From NCBI GenBank assembly GCA_963675595.2, contig CAXXLZ010000002.1, forward strand, positions 2,048,001 to 2,112,000: 64,000 nucleotides of DNA, given 5' to 3'. Under the pieces are notes generated by a model that was given only the letters and a program-made list of their open reading frames with translations, was not told the DNA's origin and did no database searches. The stretch comes from Thermodesulfobacteriota bacterium. GTDB taxonomy: Bacteria > Desulfobacterota > Desulfarculia > JACQYL01. Position 1 is the stretch's first letter, and each line of letters begins with the position of its first letter. Below, piece by piece: positions 56,842-64,000 of the stretch. Both the position numbers and the translations under genes were made by a program.

Positions 56842-57261
56842 TCACTTCGCATTCTCCGCGGTCGAGGAGTCCGGACGCGGGACGCCCATGTCGTCCAGAC
56901 GCTTGACGATGCTTTCCTTGTCCATGAAACCCACATGACGATAGACTTCATTCCCGTCTTTGTCGAAAAAGACCTGGGTCGGAATCCCACGAATTCTGTA
57001 TTGACGCGCCAAGTCCGAATTGTAGCGAATGTCAACCAGAATGACGGCGGCCCTGCCCTTGTATTCGGCGTGAAGCTCTTTCATGATGGGCTCCATCATT
57101 TTACAGGGAATACAGGTCGCGGCGCCGAAGTCGATCATGTTCACGGTGCCTTTGATGGGCAATTCGTCGAAGCAAAAAGCTTGATCCCATGAAATCAGGA
57201 ATCCGGCCAATATCAGCATGAAGACGAGGCCCAGTTTGCTTCTATTGGATTGAAACACCAC
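56842..57261 (-). CDS. Exported thioredoxin-family protein (start uncertain)
   Basis: Signal-like stretch; DFGAATCIPCK; IRGIPT; GTG after AAGGAAGGGG. Confidence 0.85.
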   Translation of the reverse strand: MVFQSNRSKLGLVFMLILAGFLISWDQAFCFDELPIKGTVNMIDFGAATCIPCKMMEPIMKELHAEYKGRAAVILVDIRYNSDLARQYRIRGIPTQVFFDKDGNEVYRHVGFMDKESIVKRLDDMGVPRPDSSTAENAK

Positions 57262-57457
57262 TTCCCCTTCCTTTCTTTTTCGATTCGTCATGTAGGGTTC
57301 GTTACGTTCATCTTGAGCCGGCAACCGGCCTTTTTCAACGGGCCGCGAAGTTTTCACGATCGACTTGTTGTCCTTCAAGCCCACGTGCGGCGGACTTCTT
57401 CCGCGGAATGATGAGAAAACCGGACTCCCTGCCTTCCGCGGCGAAGGTCCTTTTCCC

Positions 57458-58663
57458 TCATGCAGGGGCTTTCCCGCGAAACCAGTGGGGAGTCGCCAGG
57501 CAGATTTTCACCAGCATGAGCATGACCGGCACCTCGATGAGCACCCCCACCACCGTGGCCAAGGCCGCGCCGGAAGAAAGCCCGAAAAGCATCACCGCCG
57601 TGGCGATGGCCACCTCGAAATGATTCGACGCTCCAATCATGGCCGAGGGGGCCGCGTCTTCATAGGTCAGCCCCAACCATTTGGCCAAGCCGTAAGCCAG
57701 CCAGAAGATCAGATTGGTCTGAATGAACAGAGGAACGGCGATCCACAGAATGGTTAAAGGATTGGCGGTAATCACGTCGCCCTTGAAGGAGAAGAGCAAC
57801 ACAAGGGTGATGAGCAGGGCCGTGATGGTGACGGGGGTGAGGATGTGAAGGAACTTCTCCTTGAACCAGGTTTCTCCTTTGGCCGCGATGATCCACTTAC
57901 GCGATAGGTAACCCGCGGCCAAAGGCAACGCGACGTAGGCGCCGATGGACAACAGCAGCGCTTCCCAGGGTACCGGAAGACGACCCACCCCCAGAAGAAA
58001 GCCGCCCAACAGACCGTAGAGAAAAAGCATGGTCAAGGAGTTGATGGCTACCATGACCAGTGTGTGACCGTCGTTCCCACGAGCAAGGAACCCCCATACC
58101 AGGACCATGGCCGTACAGGGGGCGATACCCAGCAGGATGCAACCGGCCAGGTAACTCCGCCATAGAGGGACTTGCAGCATCTTCATGCCGTCCACCATTA
58201 CAACCGTCCCCGAGCCGTGCTCAGCTCCCACCGGAAGGTCGAGCCCGAACGGCATTTTCACGTAATCCACCGCTTCGGGGCCGATGAAAGAGTAAAACAG
58301 CGTTCCAAGAAAAAACAACCCAATGGCGTACATGGTGAAGGGTTTGATGAGCCAGTTCACCACCAGGGTCAGTCCCACCGGCTTCACGCTTTTCCCCGCC
58401 CGGATCACTTCCGAGAAATCGATCTTGACCATGATGGGGTACATCATGAAGAACAAGCAGACGGCGATGGGGATGGATACCACGGGAGCCTCCCCCACAC
58501 GAACGGTCAGGCCGTCCAGAAAGCGGGCCACGCCGGGAGCCGATCGGCCGAGCAGGATGCCCCCGAGGATGCACAAAGCCACCCACACGTAAAGGTACCG
58601 TTCGAAAAACGAAAGACCCTTTCCTTTGAGGGATTCGGTGTTACGCCCCGTTTCTCCCGCCAT
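57458..58663 (-). CDS. acr3: Acr3 arsenite efflux transporter
   Basis: [56 protein letters not shown]. Confidence 0.95.
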
Positions 58664-58786
58664 TTCCCTTCCTCCCGGCGTAACAGGCTTTTTTAAACGG
58701 GCTGGTAAGACCATGTGAGGGGTTCCGCTCAGGCCCTACATGGCCGCCATACGAAATGGTTCCCTAAGAGGCCTGCAATCCCGCCG

Positions 58787-59311
58787 TCAATCGTCGAATT
58801 GAAACTTCGCCAAATAAGCCTCCAACCGATTCCGTCGATCGCCGTCAATTGGAGGACAATCCTGAGCCCCCTTGACGCCCTCGGCGGCACGCACGGCAAA
58901 CACCATGCAGGTAGGCTGACCGCATTCCCCGCAGTTGGTGCCCGGCAGCAGCTTTAGGATATCCAACACCTTGGGCCTGCCGGCCGCCGTAGTGCTGGGT
59001 TCAATTTCAGCGCGCTGATCCCAGGTTTCGTTGATTTCTCTGCGAAGCCACTCCAGGATTCGATCGGCTTCCTCTTCGTCCTTCAACGCGTTGATGGCGA
59101 TTTCCCGGGCGTGAACCGTAATCAATCTGCCTTGGACGCGGAAAGTGACCGACGGAGGACTCTGGGTATACTGGAATCCTCCCAGCCTGGAGTTCAGATA
59201 GGGGAGAACTTCGGCCACGTCCTCCTCCAGATGGGCCACGCAATGTACGGATTGGAAACTCGGATTGCATTTGGGCCGGAAGATGTCCTTCCGGTAGGAC
59301 TTGAGCAGCAT
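58787..59311 (-). CDS. Fe-S cluster domain protein (C-terminal CxxCxxxxC...C)
   Basis: LPYLN; LLPGTNCGECGQPTCMVFA...DCPP; AAGGAGG RBS before ATG 59311. Confidence 0.85.
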   Translation of the reverse strand: MLLKSYRKDIFRPKCNPSFQSVHCVAHLEEDVAEVLPYLNSRLGGFQYTQSPPSVTFRVQGRLITVHAREIAINALKDEEEADRILEWLRREINETWDQRAEIEPSTTAAGRPKVLDILKLLPGTNCGECGQPTCMVFAVRAAEGVKGAQDCPPIDGDRRNRLEAYLAKFQFDD

Positions 59312-59444
59312 ATCTTTCCTCCTTTCCCTCCCCCGACGAACGGGACGCGCGACTCGGCGGCACTCCGGCGTCCGCCTGAGGCGGATTTCCGGAAACGTAC
59401 CCGAGATAAGGAATCCGTACAGATAAGGATGAGTGCCCGGAGGC

Positions 59445-59867
59445 TCAGGCGCAGCAGGAGGAAGCACCCCCGGAAGGGTCGGTTCCCGCCGGCGAGGTCG
59501 AAGCCGTCTCTCGGGCCGCGTTTTTCACTCGCTCGATTTCTTCCTCGACCAAGTCGAAATTCTTGTTCTTCTCGATTCCCAGATCCGTGATCACCAGATA
59601 ACCCCGCAAAGGCACGCCCGCTTTCTCAAAAATGGCCTTGGCACACCCCACGGAACAACCGTCGATGACCACCAGCCCGGAAACGTCTTTCGCGGATTGA
59701 ACGAAACCGCTGAGTTCCCCGCCGATACCGGCAAGACAAAACATGCGACCAAAGCCCTCCCGCGTCAATTCCACGGCCGCCCGGTTGGACAACTGACCTA
59801 CGTTGGAGCCTCCCGAACACGACAGAATCATGGTGCTCGAGCCTTGGGCGCAGCATTCCGAACTCAT
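59445..59867 (-). CDS. DGC-domain putative zinc/metal-binding protein
   Basis: SCSGGSNVGQ, CLAGIG, IDGCSVGCAK. Confidence 0.88.
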   Translation of the reverse strand: MSSECCAQGSSTMILSCSGGSNVGQLSNRAAVELTREGFGRMFCLAGIGGELSGFVQSAKDVSGLVVIDGCSVGCAKAIFEKAGVPLRGYLVITDLGIEKNKNFDLVEEEIERVKNAARETASTSPAGTDPSGGASSCCA

Positions 59868-59892
59868 GGCATTTCCTCCTTTGGACGTTTGC

Positions 59893-60132
59893 TCAATTCG
59901 CCTCTGAGATCCAGGTCTTCACCTGGTCTATGGTGGGAACTTTGCCCGAAATCTTCACCTTACCGTCCACAACCACACCGGGGGTGGCGAAGATGCCGAA
60001 CTTGGCGATGTCCAACGGGTTTCCAACCTTTTCTATATGAGCATCCACTCCCGTCTCCGCTACGGCCTCGGCCACCACCTTCTCCGTCTGCTTACATTTG
60101 GCGCATCCGGGTCCCAACACTTTGATATCCAT
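59893..60132 (-). CDS. Small redox-active disulfide protein (MTH895-like thioredoxin)
   Basis: IKVLGPGCAKC, TPGVVVDGKVK.SGKVP. Confidence 0.9.
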   Translation of the reverse strand: MDIKVLGPGCAKCKQTEKVVAEAVAETGVDAHIEKVGNPLDIAKFGIFATPGVVVDGKVKISGKVPTIDQVKTWISEAN

Positions 60133-60194
60133 CTGAACCTCTCCTTAAGTTTATCATTTATCGGCTTCGTTGTTTCTTTTCACGATGAATCCGA

Positions 60195-61370
60195 TCACGC
60201 TCCCACCAGCGCACCGTAGACAATCCCGGCGATGGTCGACAAAATCACGATGATTCCACAGAACACGACCGTCTTTTTCGCCCCCATGACTCCCGCGATG
60301 ACCAGCATGTTGGGTAGAGAAAGCGCCGGCCCCGCCAGCAAGAGCGCCAGCGCCGGCCCCTTCCCCATGCCGGCTCCCAGCAATCCCTGAAGGATGGGAA
60401 CCTCCGTCAAGGTGGCGAAGTACATGAAGGCTCCGGCCACGGCCGCGAACAGGTTCGCCCAGATTGAATTTCCTCCCACCAAGGTCTGTACGTAGGCTTC
60501 CGGAATCAGGGCCGGGTGCCCCGGACGCCCCAACAGAAATCCGGCCACCAGGACCCCCGCTCCCAGCAAAGGGAAGATCTGTTTCATGAATCCCCAGGAG
60601 GAGTCCACCCAATCGATCCGTTCCTCTTTGGAGAACCATTTCATCAGCATCAGAAACATCACCCCCAGAAACACGGCGGTCAGCACCCATTTGACCCTGA
60701 AGATCGCGGCCCACAGACCGCCCTCACCGGGGGCAGGCTGTGCAAAAGCGGCAAACACCAGGATCAACACGAGAGACAATACGAAGAGGGCGTCCTGCGT
60801 GAGCGTTCGCCCTTTCTCTTCCTCGTCGGGAAGGACAATGTCGCCTGCGAGGCGCGCGGCATCGTCTTTCCTGAAAATGAGAGCCATGAGCAATCCCGTG
60901 ACCACGGCGAAGATCACCGCGCCTATGGCTCGGGCGAGGCCCAATTGCCATCCCAGGACCCGGGCCGTAAGCACAATGGCCAGCACGTTGATGGCCGGTC
61001 CCGAGTAGAGGAAGGCCGTTGCCGGTCCGATGCCCGCGCCTCGGGTGAAGATGCCGGCGAACAAGGGGAGAACGGTGCAGGAGCAAACGGCCAGAATGGT
61101 TCCGGAAACCGACGCCACCGAATAGGACACGAACTTGTTGGCCTGAGCCCCGAAGTATTTGAGCACCGACGCCTGGGACACGAAAACCGCAATGGCCCCG
61201 GCGATGAAGAAAGCGGGAATCAGGCAGGTGAGCACGTGCCGGCGGGCGTAGTCCTGGAGCATGAGAAAGGCTTCCAGTCCCGATTGCCTGATTACGGGGG
61301 AACTCCAGGGCACGAAGTACGCGGCGGCGAACACGGAAACAATGAGCAACAGCTTGGACTTTTCGGACAT
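60195..61370 (-). CDS. DUF318 / ArsP-like permease
   Basis: LAVCSCTVLPLF, FLYSGPAIN, MYFATLTEVP, LAGPALSLP. Confidence 0.9.
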   Translation of the reverse strand: MSEKSKLLLIVSVFAAAYFVPWSSPVIRQSGLEAFLMLQDYARRHVLTCLIPAFFIAGAIAVFVSQASVLKYFGAQANKFVSYSVASVSGTILAVCSCTVLPLFAGIFTRGAGIGPATAFLYSGPAINVLAIVLTARVLGWQLGLARAIGAVIFAVVTGLLMALIFRKDDAARLAGDIVLPDEEEKGRTLTQDALFVLSLVLILVFAAFAQPAPGEGGLWAAIFRVKWVLTAVFLGVMFLMLMKWFSKEERIDWVDSSWGFMKQIFPLLGAGVLVAGFLLGRPGHPALIPEAYVQTLVGGNSIWANLFAAVAGAFMYFATLTEVPILQGLLGAGMGKGPALALLLAGPALSLPNMLVIAGVMGAKKTVVFCGIIVILSTIAGIVYGALVGA

Positions 61371-61384
61371 GGGCTTATCTTCCT

Positions 61385-61404
61385 ATATACCAATATTGGA
61401 ATAT
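61385..61404. promoter_or_regulatory. Palindrome, candidate ArsR operator 2
   Basis: ATATACCAATATTGGAATAT; resembles the 61758-61775 palindrome. Confidence 0.55.
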
Positions 61405-61418
61405 TATGGCCAAAACTT

Positions 61419-61748
61419 TCATCCCAACACTTTGAACGCCCGGCTTCGCTGCTGAATCACTTCCAAGGCGCAATTAAAAAAATTCAACACGCAAGGAGTC
61501 TCCAAATGATAGAAGATTTTGGCGCCGTCTTTGCGGTCGTCGACGATCCCGGCGTTCTTGAGCACGGATAAATGTTTGGACACCGTGGGTTGGCCGACGC
61601 CCAGCCTCTCGGCCAGCTCCCCCACGCACAAATCCTTTTCTCGCAGCGCATCCACGAGCATCAGCCGGGTTTCGTGTGCCAAAGCTTTGGCCACCTGTGC
61701 CCTCAATCGAAAAAGCGCCAATGATTCCGCATTGATTTCGTTTCCCAT
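61419..61748 (-). CDS. ArsR/SmtB-family transcriptional repressor
   Basis: KALAHETRL, LCVGEL, QPTVSKHLSVLKNAGIV. Confidence 0.93.
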   Translation of the reverse strand: MGNEINAESLALFRLRAQVAKALAHETRLMLVDALREKDLCVGELAERLGVGQPTVSKHLSVLKNAGIVDDRKDGAKIFYHLETPCVLNFFNCALEVIQQRSRAFKVLG

Positions 61749-61755
61749 GTTTTTT

Positions 61756-61784
61756 ATTATTCACATATGGGAATATAATGTCAA
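61756..61784 (-). promoter_or_regulatory. Promoter TTGACA-N17-AATAAT overlapped by a palindromic operator (61758-61775)
   Basis: Perfect -35; TATTCCCATATGTGAATA dyad in the spacer; ATG 7 nt after -10 and no SD. Confidence 0.65.
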
Positions 61785-62012
61785 GAGCAAAACAGCGCCC
61801 ACGGGAGGCTTCCTTCCCCTGGAAATTTCAGAGCTCGTGCCGTCCGCGCTTCTGCAACTCAATGCCGACCCACCTCGTATCAGCGGGCGGAAGCCTGAAA
61901 ACAGACTCCCGCCGAAGACTCTTCCGCTGCTGCTCCTGAAACGCTCAGGCCGGCCTTTTCCGAAAGCCCCTCCAAATGAGGCCGAGCACGACGAGACCGT
62001 GGTGTCGCACCG

Positions 62013-62327
62013 TCAGTTAAAAATTTTGCCCAACAGCCCCTTCTTCCTAGTTTCAGGAACGGGCATGCCCAATTCCCTGCAAATCGCAGTCTCAAGGACA
62101 TTCTCCTCCACGTCCGATCCTTCCACCACGATCTTGTCTCCTACCATGACGGCCGGAGCCACCGGCAAATCCAGTTCAAAATATTCGTCGGTGTTGTACG
62201 CCGCTTTGGGCTTGGATATGGTTTCGATTTCGATTTGGTATTTTCCGCCCAACCTGGGCATCATTTCTTTGAAATGCCTTCAGGGCCTTCCGTTGGGTTC
62301 GTTGAGAAAAAACCTGACCTTTAACAT
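62013..62327 (-). CDS. Putative selenoprotein with NEPxGxxU motif, thioredoxin-like fold, 104 aa (Sec at codon 16)
   Basis: AAGGAG RBS + ATG 62327; MLKVRFFLNEPNGRP-TGA(62280-62282)-RHFKEMMPRLGG continues in frame into ORF 62013..62264; SECIS-like hairpin downstream. Confidence 0.82.
62247..62282 (-). promoter_or_regulatory. Candidate bacterial SECIS element
   Basis: UGA + 20 nt + GCCCA-GGU-UGGGC stem-loop with G,G,U in the apical loop. Confidence 0.6.
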
Positions 62328-62441
62328 GTTGGCTCTCCTTACCTGATGAACTGCTTAGGCTCCGGTCTTCTGGCAGCCGAATTCCGCGGAGCGGGATCGG
62401 GCCGGAGCCGGTTTTCCCATAGCCTGAATGCCCCCACCAAG

Positions 62442-62948
62442 TTAGAATTTCTGGGTCTTGATGCTGTGGTAGACCGCCTTGCACATGCTGGAAGATCCGC
62501 CCGCAACACCTTCGCGATTCTTGAACCCTTCCGTTTGCTTCAGACTCTCCAGATACGTCTCCGGGTCATCCAGCTCTACCCACGCCTGTTCCACAGGCAC
62601 CTCCGGTCTAATACGGAAAAGCAGGCCGTCCCCGTACGGGTCTTTCACGACCACCCCAGGGTCCTCGGACACGGCCCTGTTGAATCGGATGGTCCCCGCC
62701 ACGGGAGCTTCCAGGTATTTCAGTTTCGTGGTAATGGCCACCCCTATCGCCCGGCCTTTCTCCACCGACTCACCCTCGTTCACCAACTCGCTCAAGTCGA
62801 CAAAGGCGCCTACCAGTACGAGGGTGGGTTCTGCCAGGCCGAAAACCAGCTCCGCGCCTTCCCGGCGTCCCCACAGGCCCTGCTTGGCGTCGTATTTCAA
62901 GTCTTCCGGGATTTCCACCGTTCTCCCTAAAAACTTATCGATGATCAT
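62442..62948 (-). CDS. Glycine-cleavage-H-like (lipoyl carrier-like) protein with C-terminal extension
   Basis: IPEDLKY, GVAITTK (Lys at the lipoyl position), APVAGTI, DPYGDG.LFRI; ATG 62948. Confidence 0.78.
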   Translation of the reverse strand: MIIDKFLGRTVEIPEDLKYDAKQGLWGRREGAELVFGLAEPTLVLVGAFVDLSELVNEGESVEKGRAIGVAITTKLKYLEAPVAGTIRFNRAVSEDPGVVVKDPYGDGLLFRIRPEVPVEQAWVELDDPETYLESLKQTEGFKNREGVAGGSSSMCKAVYHSIKTQKF

Positions 62949-62970
62949 GACGATTCCCCGCCGTCTCCTT

Positions 62971-64000
62971 TCATTCCGGTTTGTGCGTGCCCCCCGCTCT
63001 CCTTGCCGCTCTTGGCTCGGGAGCCGAAACAACCGCATCCATCAACTCCAGGAACCTCGAAGGCGGCACGAAGTCCACCAACCTGAGGTCCCTCCTTTCC
63101 TTTCCATGCCCGTCCAGGAAGACCACCGTGGGAACACCCTTGATTCCGTATTCCCTCAACAGCCGTTCGTTCAGTGGATTTCCACTCTTGGTCACGTCGA
63201 TCTTGACCATGACGACTTCCTCATCTCCCCGCTTCACGATCCGAGGATCATGGAACACTTCCTCATCGAGAGCTCGGCAGGGAGAACACCAATCCGCGTA
63301 GAAGTCCATGATGACGGGCTTGTCGGCTTCCACCGCTTGGCGAAGCAGATCGTCCGAGTAGGCGTGCCAAGAAACGCCGGGACCTCTGACGGCCCATTCC
63401 CCCACCAGAAGGCAGGACACCAGCACACCCAGGATGAGGACTCCTCGTTTCATCCAAACGAAAGCCGAAAAGGCGGCCCTGGTCTTGTCCAACAAGCCCA
63501 GGTGAACGCCGGCCGCCAAAGCGACGCCGGCTGAGAGAAAGACGAAAGTCGTTTCCGACAGAAGCGGCTGAAGGAAGTAGGCCGCCATGCCCACCAGAAT
63601 CCAGCCCATGAGCTTGCGCACCCACACCATCCATTCCCCGGACCGGGGCAGGCGCTCGATCTTTCCTGAGAACAACGCCAGAAGGAACAGCGGAAGGCCG
63701 AGACCGAGGCTTAGGGTGAAAAACACCAGGAATCCCATCCAGGCCGATCCGGTGCTCGCCACCCAGGTGAGCAGTCCCAGAACAAAGGGACCAATGCATG
63801 GGGCGGCCACCACCCCCAGGGTGATCCCCATGAACAGGGATCCGAACCACCCCGCATGCGGTTTGGAGGCGGCTTGCGTCAAGAATCCGGGCAAGCGAAG
63901 CTCCCAGAATCCGAACATGCTGCTCGCGAAAACCAGCAACACCACGGCCACCGTGACAAGCACCGCCGGATTCTGCAGCAATGCTCCTAAAAGACCGCCG
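62971..64000 (-). CDS. DsbD-type thiol:disulfide interchange protein, 5' end outside the window
   Basis: VAAPCIGP TM motif, LPRSGEWM, DFYADWCSPC thioredoxin domain, GVPT; frame open to the window edge. Confidence 0.9.
   Translation of the reverse strand, partial: GGLLGALLQNPAVLVTVAVVLLVFASSMFGFWELRLPGFLTQAASKPHAGWFGSLFMGITLGVVAAPCIGPFVLGLLTWVASTGSAWMGFLVFFTLSLGLGLPLFLLALFSGKIERLPRSGEWMVWVRKLMGWILVGMAAYFLQPLLSETTFVFLSAGVALAAGVHLGLLDKTRAAFSAFVWMKRGVLILGVLVSCLLVGEWAVRGPGVSWHAYSDDLLRQAVEADKPVIMDFYADWCSPCRALDEEVFHDPRIVKRGDEEVVMVKIDVTKSGNPLNERLLREYGIKGVPTVVFLDGHGKERRDLRLVDFVPPSRFLELMDAVVSAPEPRAARRAGGTHKPE

Follow-up and report, generated by a model that had tools for sequence, protein, structure and literature searches.

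Three co-oriented minus-strand genes at the end of a 64,000-nucleotide stretch of a Thermodesulfobacteriota genome (assembly GCA_963675595.2, contig CAXXLZ010000002.1, positions 2,048,001 to 2,112,000; the whole stretch is called here the window) code for a DsbD-like protein, a GcvH-like protein and a small selenocysteine (Sec, U) protein. By their matches to curated family models these genes (window positions 62013-64000) are the distal end of a Tso gene cluster, a system known at the comparative-genomics level that was named in 2025. An earlier note on this DNA had presented them as a candidate undescribed redox system, but NCBIfam has a curated model for each of the three proteins and the Tso operon is already in print. 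The note thus rediscovered, correctly, a system that had been described, and did not find a new one. Our overall reading, to which we assign a probability of about 0.55, is that in this distal end of Tso the first protein, TsoB, would act as an electron conduit, the Sec protein, TsoC, as an oxidoreductase, and the GcvH-related protein as an optional carrier with a Cys-bearing arm. Beyond the family names, the analysis adds that the GcvH-related member is optional, that its tail Cys is invariant whereas the Lys at the lipoyl position is not, that TsoC and an MTH895/ArsE thioredoxin are alternative neighbours of its gene, and that the second Cys of TsoC moves between lineages.

The features of the module, together with a promoter-like site that marks its boundary, are the following.

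62971 to >64000 (cut by the window end), minus strand: 3' part of tsoB, residues 253-594 of 594, stop codon TGA at 62971-62973
62949-62970: 22-bp gap between the tsoB stop and the GcvH-related gene
62442-62948, minus strand: GcvH-related gene, 168 amino acids, without signal peptide
62724-62726, minus strand: codon of K75, at the lipoyl-lysine position in the alignment with GcvH structures
62481-62483, minus strand: codon of C156, the sole Cys of the GcvH-related protein, in the Gly-rich arm GGSSSMCKAVY
62328-62441: 114-bp gap between the GcvH-related gene and tsoC
62013-62327, minus strand: tsoC, 104 amino acids plus TGA stop
62280-62282, minus strand: TGA predicted to be read as Sec16 of TsoC (NEPNGRPU)
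62247-62259, minus strand: apical hairpin of the selenocysteine insertion sequence (SECIS) of tsoC, GCCCA-GGU-UGGGC, starting 21 nt past the UGA
61756-61784, minus strand: sigma-70-like promoter TTGACA-17-AATAAT (11/12), outside the module and just upstream of arsR

The genes, gaps, motifs and in-frame TGA given in the earlier note were all reproduced from the sequence. Against the NCBIfam models, the Sec protein scores 150.9 bits with NF045708 ('NEPxGxxU motif selenoprotein TsoC', cut-off 45) and the GcvH-like protein 213.6 bits with NF045810 ('GcvH-related protein', cut-off 150). The window part of TsoB alone reaches 555.9 bits with NF045694 (rhodanese/DsbD fusion-like double selenoprotein), and the full-length protein of 594 amino acids, for which the DNA past the window end was included, 954.8 bits (cut-off 805). 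In Pfam the first gene matches DsbD_TM and thioredoxin domains and the second matches GCV_H, while the third has no match. A 2026 review (PMC13188914; this and the other cited sources were available in part, and what is said of them refers to those parts) lists 'Tso (three selenoprotein operon)', citing Haft & Tolstoy 2025 (mSystems 10:e0141724), and tabulates TsoA, TsoB, TsoC, TsoX and TsoY with their motifs; LULAxC, UxxxxU and NEPxGxxU at the locus agree with this table. The content of the primary Tso paper aside, nothing on Tso or the GcvH-related protein beyond this review turned up in the literature and no bench data on Tso members were found, for which reason any mechanistic handle on the system is useful.

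The selenoproteins TsoC and TsoB

The evidence that TsoC is a selenoprotein comes from several sides. In a sample of 401 genomes of the phylum, to which the NCBIfam cut-offs were applied, 39 of the 41 TsoC matches over the cut-off contain one in-frame TGA, the remaining two being partial matches in one genome. Hits to NEPxGxx[U/C] in 115 loci carry the TGA without exception (77/77), with NEPxG in frame upstream of it. The hairpin GCCCA-GGY-UGGGC, 21 nt past the UGA, has five near-invariant pairs (RNAalifold, 26 sequences); it is frozen even at synonymous sites, shows no covariation among these sequences, and is recovered in the single-sequence fold as well. The genome encodes tRNA-SeC (C1:971408-971505, ARAGORN) and SelB, and rare homologues have a Cys at the Sec position (P0125, P0174). 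Together these observations argue that the decoding of the TGA as Sec is real and beyond chance. The opposite view, i.e. that there is no real selenoprotein and the TGA ends a pseudogene or parts two small open reading frames, could appeal to the fact that standard gene callers begin the family at the Met following the TGA. A profile search of 1.84 billion representatives did return 211 TsoC-type clusters most of which start at this Met, but this is the usual mark of a mis-called selenoprotein, and the view is already refuted by the conserved upstream frame, the SECIS hairpin, the Sec machinery and the Cys forms; we consider it next to impossible.

Other scans of the region added little. An Rfam scan of positions 57000-64000 gave no match, and promoter and terminator scans returned nothing usable besides the promoter-like site before arsR. 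A 'terminator' called inside tsoC was rejected: it corresponds to the SECIS hairpin, read from the opposite strand.

In an alignment of 29 TsoC sequences N9, E10, P11, G13 and U16 are invariant. One further Cys is present in 71 of 72 unique sequences (absent in 1), at position 83 in 54 of them, at position 6 in 14 and at 56, 12 or 85 in a few; such a wandering second Cys is the pattern expected of a resolving Cys. The commonest weak Pfam match of the family is PF13192 (Thioredoxin_3; 11/29 members, best E 0.0027). hhalign pairs U16 with the first of the two Cys in the MTH895-type CxxC and also matches up the cis-Pro regions, at a probability of only 2-4%. The TsoC profile gave chance-level matches only against the PDB, i.e. 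no sequence relative there. TsoC is thus probably a small cytoplasmic selenoprotein whose fold is a divergent form of Thioredoxin_3 (MTH895-type), with UxxF where CxxC would stand. It resembles MTH895/ArsE in size, in the beta-alpha-beta...cis-Pro layout and in its repeated weak PF13192 matches, and the two are mutually exclusive neighbours of the GcvH-related gene. It differs in having U-x-x-F instead of C-x-x-C and in its lead, NEPxG, which is invariant; the two are not linked by any significant match in sequence. We also note a TsoC-like subfamily (P0122, P0132, P0133, P0137) in which Cys12 and Ser16 (EPxCxxS) replace Sec16 and the basic tail is longer; one of its members, P0133 (396 amino acids), is fused to a class I S-adenosylmethionine (SAM) methyltransferase.

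According to the hydropathy profile and the map of Cys and Sec residues, TsoB begins with a hydrophobic anchor or signal segment. There follow a rhodanese domain whose FYUAGLTUVRS holds U120 and U125, a membrane core of the DsbD type in which C204 and C320 lie, and a C-terminal thioredoxin domain with C490-x-x-C493. Pfam finds Rhodanese, DsbD_TM and Thioredoxin domains in the full protein. The window holds the transmembrane core with C320 and the thioredoxin domain, while C204, U120 and U125 lie beyond its end. The two-Sec motif is present in 60 of 61 motif hits, and the SECIS hairpin of TsoB shows a compensatory change from G-C to A-U. With the model of DsbD proper (NF001419) TsoB stays below the cut-off (261.1 bits vs 330) and the match begins at residue 184 only: a rhodanese domain stands in place of the DsbD Ig-like alpha domain. 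The domain layout shows TsoB as a DsbD-class membrane thiol:disulfide electron conduit, with the double-Sec rhodanese as its predicted substrate-facing N-terminal domain. With DsbD and ScsB (PMC3322552) it has in common the DsbD_TM core, the two membrane Cys and the C-terminal thioredoxin CxxC. ScsB, like TsoB, has another N-terminal domain, which implies different substrates from those of DsbD, and TsoB differs from both in that this domain is a rhodanese with two Sec. According to the available text of the same source, the electrons of DsbD come from cytoplasmic thioredoxin and the N-terminal domain sets the substrate. The idea of a Sec redox module in the earlier note, i.e. a thiol/selenol module built around a DsbD-type protein, is supported by this architecture.

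In a strain that is about 3% divergent (run X4), one base is deleted and, 22 bp away, one base is inserted (window positions 62990 and 63012). The pair falls in the C-terminal tail of TsoB, where a few residues are recoded before the frame is restored.

The GcvH-related protein and its neighbourhoods

The GcvH-related protein exceeds the cut-off of PF01597 (GCV_H; 37.2 bits vs 22.2) and is below that of the GcvH equivalog TIGR00527 (40.2 bits vs 115.85). It has a core with the GcvH fold (residues 11-137, isoelectric point 4.57) and a 28-residue basic C-terminal extension (isoelectric point of the tail 9.87). The sequence context AITTKLK and the tail GGSSSMCKAVY with its lone Cys are as the earlier note had described. 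In phmmer alignments with 1ONL, 1HPC and 3A8I the first K of TTKLK, K75, falls on the lipoyl-lysine, followed by a one-residue deletion.

The two candidate working residues differ in conservation. At the K75 position, 108 of 116 homologues have K and 8 have R, and all 80 genome loci described below have K. The Arg variants come from at least three lineages and are otherwise intact, with CKAVY retained, so that the strictly conserved lipoyl-lysine expected of GcvH and LbpA is not found across this family. C156-K157-A158-V159, on the other hand, is invariant in 116/116 homologues, as is C156 (KGGVSGICKAVY) in 80/80 loci, and the CKAVY-type tail motif occurs just once in the genome. In other words, of the Lys and Cys on whose conservation the earlier note had made its reading depend, the Cys is invariant and the Lys is not.

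LbpA, the lipoate-binding protein of the sHdr system, is the closest parallel (PMC6067878; preprint 10.64898/2026.10.01.755906). As far as the available parts of these sources go, LbpA and the GcvH-related protein are both stand-alone GcvH folds outside glycine cleavage, both have a conserved Cys near the C terminus flanked by Gly, and both have rhodanese, DsrE-like and ArsR-type genes nearby. The C-terminal Cys of LbpA is strictly conserved and often flanked by Gly, and the authors of PMC6067878 liken it to the sulfur-binding GGCGG arm of SoxY. According to both sources, however, a set of 95 LbpA proteins and GcvH strictly retain the lipoyl-Lys, while it is not strict here. Moreover, the GcvH-related protein lacks an N-terminal Cys partner, its gene has no sLpl-type ligase beside it, and its Cys lies in a 28-residue extension with the invariant CKAVY. 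No sHdr genes were noticed in the flanks of the GcvH-related loci, although no dedicated search for hdr-like genes was made.

The surroundings of the gene were also inspected for lipoate enzymes. Homologues of LplA, LipB and LipA are absent from the flanks of the 80 GcvH-related loci and of 35 TsoC loci, while each of the two ordinary GcvH-like paralogues of the genome has an LplA-type gene less than 2 kb away. The statement of the earlier note that the window has no lipoate ligase, gcvT or 2-oxoacid dehydrogenase holds; the only E2 of the genome lies on contig C1, and the genes for LipA and the LplA-type enzymes are elsewhere.

Because of its invariance, the Gly-rich basic extension around it and the likeness to the Cys arm of LbpA and SoxY, the tail Cys C156 is read as the working group. 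The GcvH-related protein thus seems to be one in which a conserved Cys on a flexible tail does the work, with no sign of a need for lipoic acid.

As to the ordinary paralogues (C2:297628-299914 and C2:2788941-2790033), they have VESGKW and IQSRKW at the lipoyl site and genes with LplA/LipB-type catalytic domains nearby. GCV_T has no match anywhere in the genome (98% complete), and for this reason the paralogues may be LbpA/sLpl-like pairs.

The GcvH-related gene is, by its distribution, an optional accessory of Tso. In the phylum sample TsoC exceeds the cut-off in 31/401 genomes and the GcvH-related model in 8/401; all 8 also carry TsoC, i.e. only 8 of the 31 TsoC genomes have the gene, which makes it dispensable for Tso. 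Around TsoC, 34 flanks were fetched: TsoB adjoins in 25, the full order TsoR-TsoA-TsoB-TsoC is present in 22 and the GcvH-related gene in 6.

For the reverse test 80 loci were found with the alignment of the GcvH-related family, and neighbours were counted within 4 kb (in 22 of the 80 loci the flank on one side is shorter than 2 kb). The three genes recur together, as the earlier note had expected. The counts among the 80 loci are as follows.

TsoC, 43
TsoB, 41
TrxR-like flavoprotein, 27
HUIPC-type Trx-like gene, 25
MTH895/ArsE thioredoxin, 14
ArsM-like gene, 12
DsrE-like selenoprotein, 9
ACR3, 1

It is conspicuous that TsoC or the MTH895/ArsE thioredoxin is found in 57/80 loci and never both in the same one; at least one thiol-redox neighbour is present in 71/80. 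The median same-strand gap is 47 bp from TsoC to the GcvH-related gene (n=30) and 21 bp in the reverse order (n=7). Unbiased clustering of the open reading frames gave the same leading neighbours plus genes for CobW-type GTPases, B12-binding, URO-D, MeaB and SMC_N proteins, with the TrxR-like gene among the top neighbours (median distance 59 bp). A long form with the order TsoR-TsoA-TsoB-TsoC-H-TrxL-HMA-DsrE-ArsM/AhpD, where H is the GcvH-related gene, recurs; its gene set is that of the locus studied here, in a different order.

The gene has a second setting as well. Thirty-five genomes have it away from Tso, and 19 of these have TsoC elsewhere. In a quick tree of 81 GcvH-related proteins only 3 changes are required for the TrxR setting, which lies nested among rows of the Tso setting, and the protein of this window forms a long branch. 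The non-Tso loci (L085-L162) carry a TrxR-like flavoprotein with its CxxC kept, MTH895/ArsE, CobW-type, B12-binding, URO-D (MtaA-like), MeaB, DUF2284 and SMC_N genes. This second setting is probably a corrinoid methyl-transfer support cluster.

The wider locus and its arsenic neighbours

The earlier note suspected more selenoprotein genes upstream of the DsbD-like gene. Eighteen kb past the window end were read in the same genome (stretch L001), and further genes with in-frame TGA are indeed present there. In order away from the window end, they and their neighbours are:

beyond the window end, minus strand: rest of tsoB, rhodanese with U-x4-U
upstream of tsoB, same strand: ArsM/AhpD double selenoprotein (NF041537, 515.7 vs cut-off 510)
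L001 4159-5543 and 5556-6940 (window-equivalent 66159-68940): two tandem, near-identical IS4-family insertion sequence (IS) copies, each of 1385 bp and with inverted repeats of 22 bp, separated by 12 bp
upstream of the IS4 copies, same strand: Cys-type Trx-like gene
upstream of the Trx-like gene, same strand: HMA-domain UxxU protein, MEULTUEG
upstream of the HMA gene, same strand: DsrE-family selenoprotein, VGVUIPC
upstream of the DsrE-like gene, same strand: TsoA (NF045695, 195.2 vs cut-off 170), HRULAEC, C-terminal winged helix
upstream of TsoA, same strand: TsoR (NF045707, 143.3 vs cut-off 115)

The locus thus has six selenoprotein genes with nine Sec codons over about 9 kb, which places the Tso cluster among the densest selenoprotein loci known. 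TsoR, TsoA, TsoB, TsoC and the GcvH-related protein all exceed their NCBIfam cut-offs. The four tso genes lie on one strand within 9.2 kb, but five other genes and the two IS copies intervene: the DsrE-like, HMA and Trx-like genes, the IS4 pair and ArsM/AhpD part TsoR-TsoA from TsoB, the GcvH-related gene and TsoC. The IS4 pair itself sits inside the selenoprotein cluster, with ArsM/AhpD on one side and the Trx-like gene on the other. The GcvH-related gene lies between TsoB and TsoC, as here, in just 7/80 of its loci, and an ACR3 operon follows directly after the cluster. Judged by gene content and order, the locus is a rearranged Tso member that carries the optional GcvH-related gene.

Some smaller points concern the regulatory genes and the remaining Tso families. 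The winged helix of TsoA scores 24.1 with PF13412 (cut-off 21.9; TsoA/TsoR, L001 7085-9175), and the Sec/Cys-bearing TsoA may be a sensing partner of TsoR. TsoR itself, whose NCBIfam model takes its name from locus tag Dbac_1936, was dropped as a Cys-based sensor, since its family is without a conserved Cys. A stand-alone TsoX selenoprotein (C2:2475728-2475973, HSGNARUIAC, 109.4 bits vs cut-off 52) is encoded at a distance of 365 kb from the tso genes, next to a long open reading frame judged a transposase by eye only. TsoY had no match in the genome, but the control genomes were blank too, so this search says little. ARAGORN also reports a tRNA-Pyl (anticodon cta) at C2:125847-125918.

On the other side of the module, tsoC is followed by ars genes, which include:

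61419-61748: arsR (ArsR/SmtB), first gene of the ACR3 operon
60195-61370: COG0701-type permease, with weak SO_0444/SaoE similarity only
59893-60132: MTH895/ArsE thioredoxin
59445-59867: DGC-domain protein
58787-59314: 4Fe-4S-type domain protein

The operon also holds ACR3 itself (374.9 bits vs cut-off 282.8). The DGC, 4Fe-4S, MTH895/ArsE and COG0701-type permease genes are unusual passengers of an ACR3 operon (window 57458-61784). The junction between the tso and ars genes is bridged by contigs from three studies, one of them from a strain about 3% divergent, and is therefore not an assembly artefact. Nevertheless, the link to arsenic that the earlier note had drawn from this adjacency does not extend beyond the locus: ACR3 and ArsR are adjacent in 1/80 GcvH-related loci and in 0/34 TsoC loci, and a promoter-like site of their own precedes the ars genes. 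The ACR3 operon appears to be a separate, lineage-specific neighbour, i.e. the arsenic setting is inferred to be local.

Proposed electron path and alternatives

By analogy with DsbD and ScsB (PMC3322552), TsoB would pass reducing equivalents from the cytoplasm to the periplasmic rhodanese diselenide, the path running from a cytoplasmic donor via the Cys pair in the membrane and then the thioredoxin domain to the U-x4-U of the rhodanese. The diselenide would then act on a thiophilic substrate, such as a metalloid, a soft metal or a reactive chalcogen species. TsoC would be a cytoplasmic oxidoreductase of the Thioredoxin_3 type with Sec at the position of the nucleophilic Cys, its Sec being resolved by the second Cys whose position depends on the lineage. 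The GcvH-related protein would serve as an optional cytoplasmic carrier which exchanges, via its Cys arm, with TsoC here and with the MTH895/ArsE-type protein elsewhere, and which is recycled by the TrxR-like flavoprotein in the non-Tso settings. TsoC and the GcvH-related protein would thus form a Sec/Cys exchange pair on the cytoplasmic side. In the family as a whole, lipoylation of K75 is possible and not an obligate feature.

A more specific form of this scheme can be stated tentatively, although we think the odds are against it. It proposes a lipoate-independent 'cysteine swinging-arm' carrier, i.e. a GcvH scaffold on which the Cys of the Gly-rich arm replaces the lipoyl-lysine, and which pairs with Thioredoxin_3-type mini-oxidoreductases (TsoC, MTH895/ArsE) and a TrxR-like flavoprotein. 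If true, it would be a so-far uncharacterised cytoplasmic thiol/selenol relay that feeds TsoB and the metalloid methyltransferase selenoproteins.

Several points weigh against the scheme. K75 is kept in 188/196 sequences and its hairpin is highly conserved; the genome has LipA and three LplA-type genes, located elsewhere than the Tso locus. Lipoylation of K75 is thus possible, with roughly one chance in three. A carrier with a lone Cys is unable to pass two electrons by itself. Many of the TrxR-like neighbours are on the strand opposite to the GcvH-related gene. No TsoC is detectable in 16 of the 35 genomes that have this gene away from Tso, among them the isolate Desulfatitalea alkaliphila, which means that the carrier has no fixed tie to TsoC. 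For TsoC itself, the thioredoxin fold was assigned from sub-threshold matches (hhalign 2-4%; Pfam E >= 0.0027), and this assignment is accordingly an inference. Finally, the substrate of TsoB is a guess: the metalloregulator-type TsoR, the HMA UxxU protein, the ArsM-like enzymes and the CobW GTPases point to soft metal(loid)s, the rhodanese, DsrE and LbpA-like arm to sulfur or selenium transfer.

The alternative favoured by the earlier note is that the GcvH-like protein is lipoylated, its dihydrolipoyl arm, together with the tail Cys, feeding the Sec protein and the DsbD-like protein or trapping arsenite as a decoy, in which case the module would be an adjunct of the ACR3 operon. A Lys is present at the lipoyl position (K in 108/116 and 80/80) and the enzymes LipA and LplA-type are encoded in the genome. 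According to the available part of preprint 10.64898/2026.10.01.755906, the residues around the lysine matter little for recognition by the ligase and do not chiefly determine lipoylation. ACR3, ArsR and the ArsM/AhpD selenoprotein flank the genes here, in an adjacency that is real in the contigs of three studies, and ArsM-like genes are found in 12/80 loci. Nevertheless, the Arg in 8/116 homologues of at least three lineages, all with CKAVY kept, contrasts with the strict Lys of GcvH and of the 95 LbpA proteins (PMC6067878, in its available text). Lipoate ligase genes are missing from all 80 and 35 fetched flanks, though the ordinary paralogues adjoin such genes. The rarity of ACR3 and ArsR at other loci and the separate promoter-like site of arsR argue in the same direction. 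This is the weaker reading as compared with the Tso Cys-arm reading, and we regard it as distinctly unlikely.

The same gene set could also suggest a chalcogen relay, in which sulfane sulfur or selenium moves as persulfide or perselenide via the TsoB rhodanese, the DsrE-like protein and the Cys arm of the GcvH-related protein, a route that would mirror the rhodanese-DsrE-TusA-LbpA cascade feeding sHdr, or the swinging arm of SoxY. A rhodanese, a DsrE-like selenoprotein, a GcvH-like protein and an ArsR-type regulator do co-occur here and in the long form, and the likeness drawn between the LbpA arm and SoxY (PMC6067878, in part) fits with it. But the DsrE-like gene is near the GcvH-related gene in just 9/80 loci, sHdr genes were not noticed in the flanks in the undedicated inspection mentioned above, the Cys columns of the alignment hold no counterpart of the N-terminal Cys partner of LbpA, and no Cys is conserved in TsoR, unlike in the two-Cys persulfide sensors. 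That TsoB keeps the DsbD core intact, Cys pair and thioredoxin CxxC included, argues for electron transfer instead. We consider such a chalcogen relay unlikely.

A further possibility, more doubtful than either of these, is that TsoC, the GcvH-related protein and the Trx-like proteins supply reductant for methyl transfer on soft metal(loid)s, i.e. that they re-reduce ArsM-like SAM methyltransferase selenoproteins or corrinoid methyltransferases each time these have turned over. Turnover of ArsM leaves a disulfide that thioredoxin is needed to reduce. The ArsM/AhpD gene adjoins the module here, ArsM-like genes recur in the 12 loci counted above, and the second setting has B12-binding, URO-D (MtaA-like), MeaB, CobW and SMC_N genes. 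However, about 31 of the 34 Tso loci are without a methyltransferase nearby, and the periplasm-facing TsoB would be left without a role. The methyltransferase::TsoC-like fusion (P0133) is in favour as well, but it is a single cluster and belongs to the non-Sec subfamily with C12 and S16.

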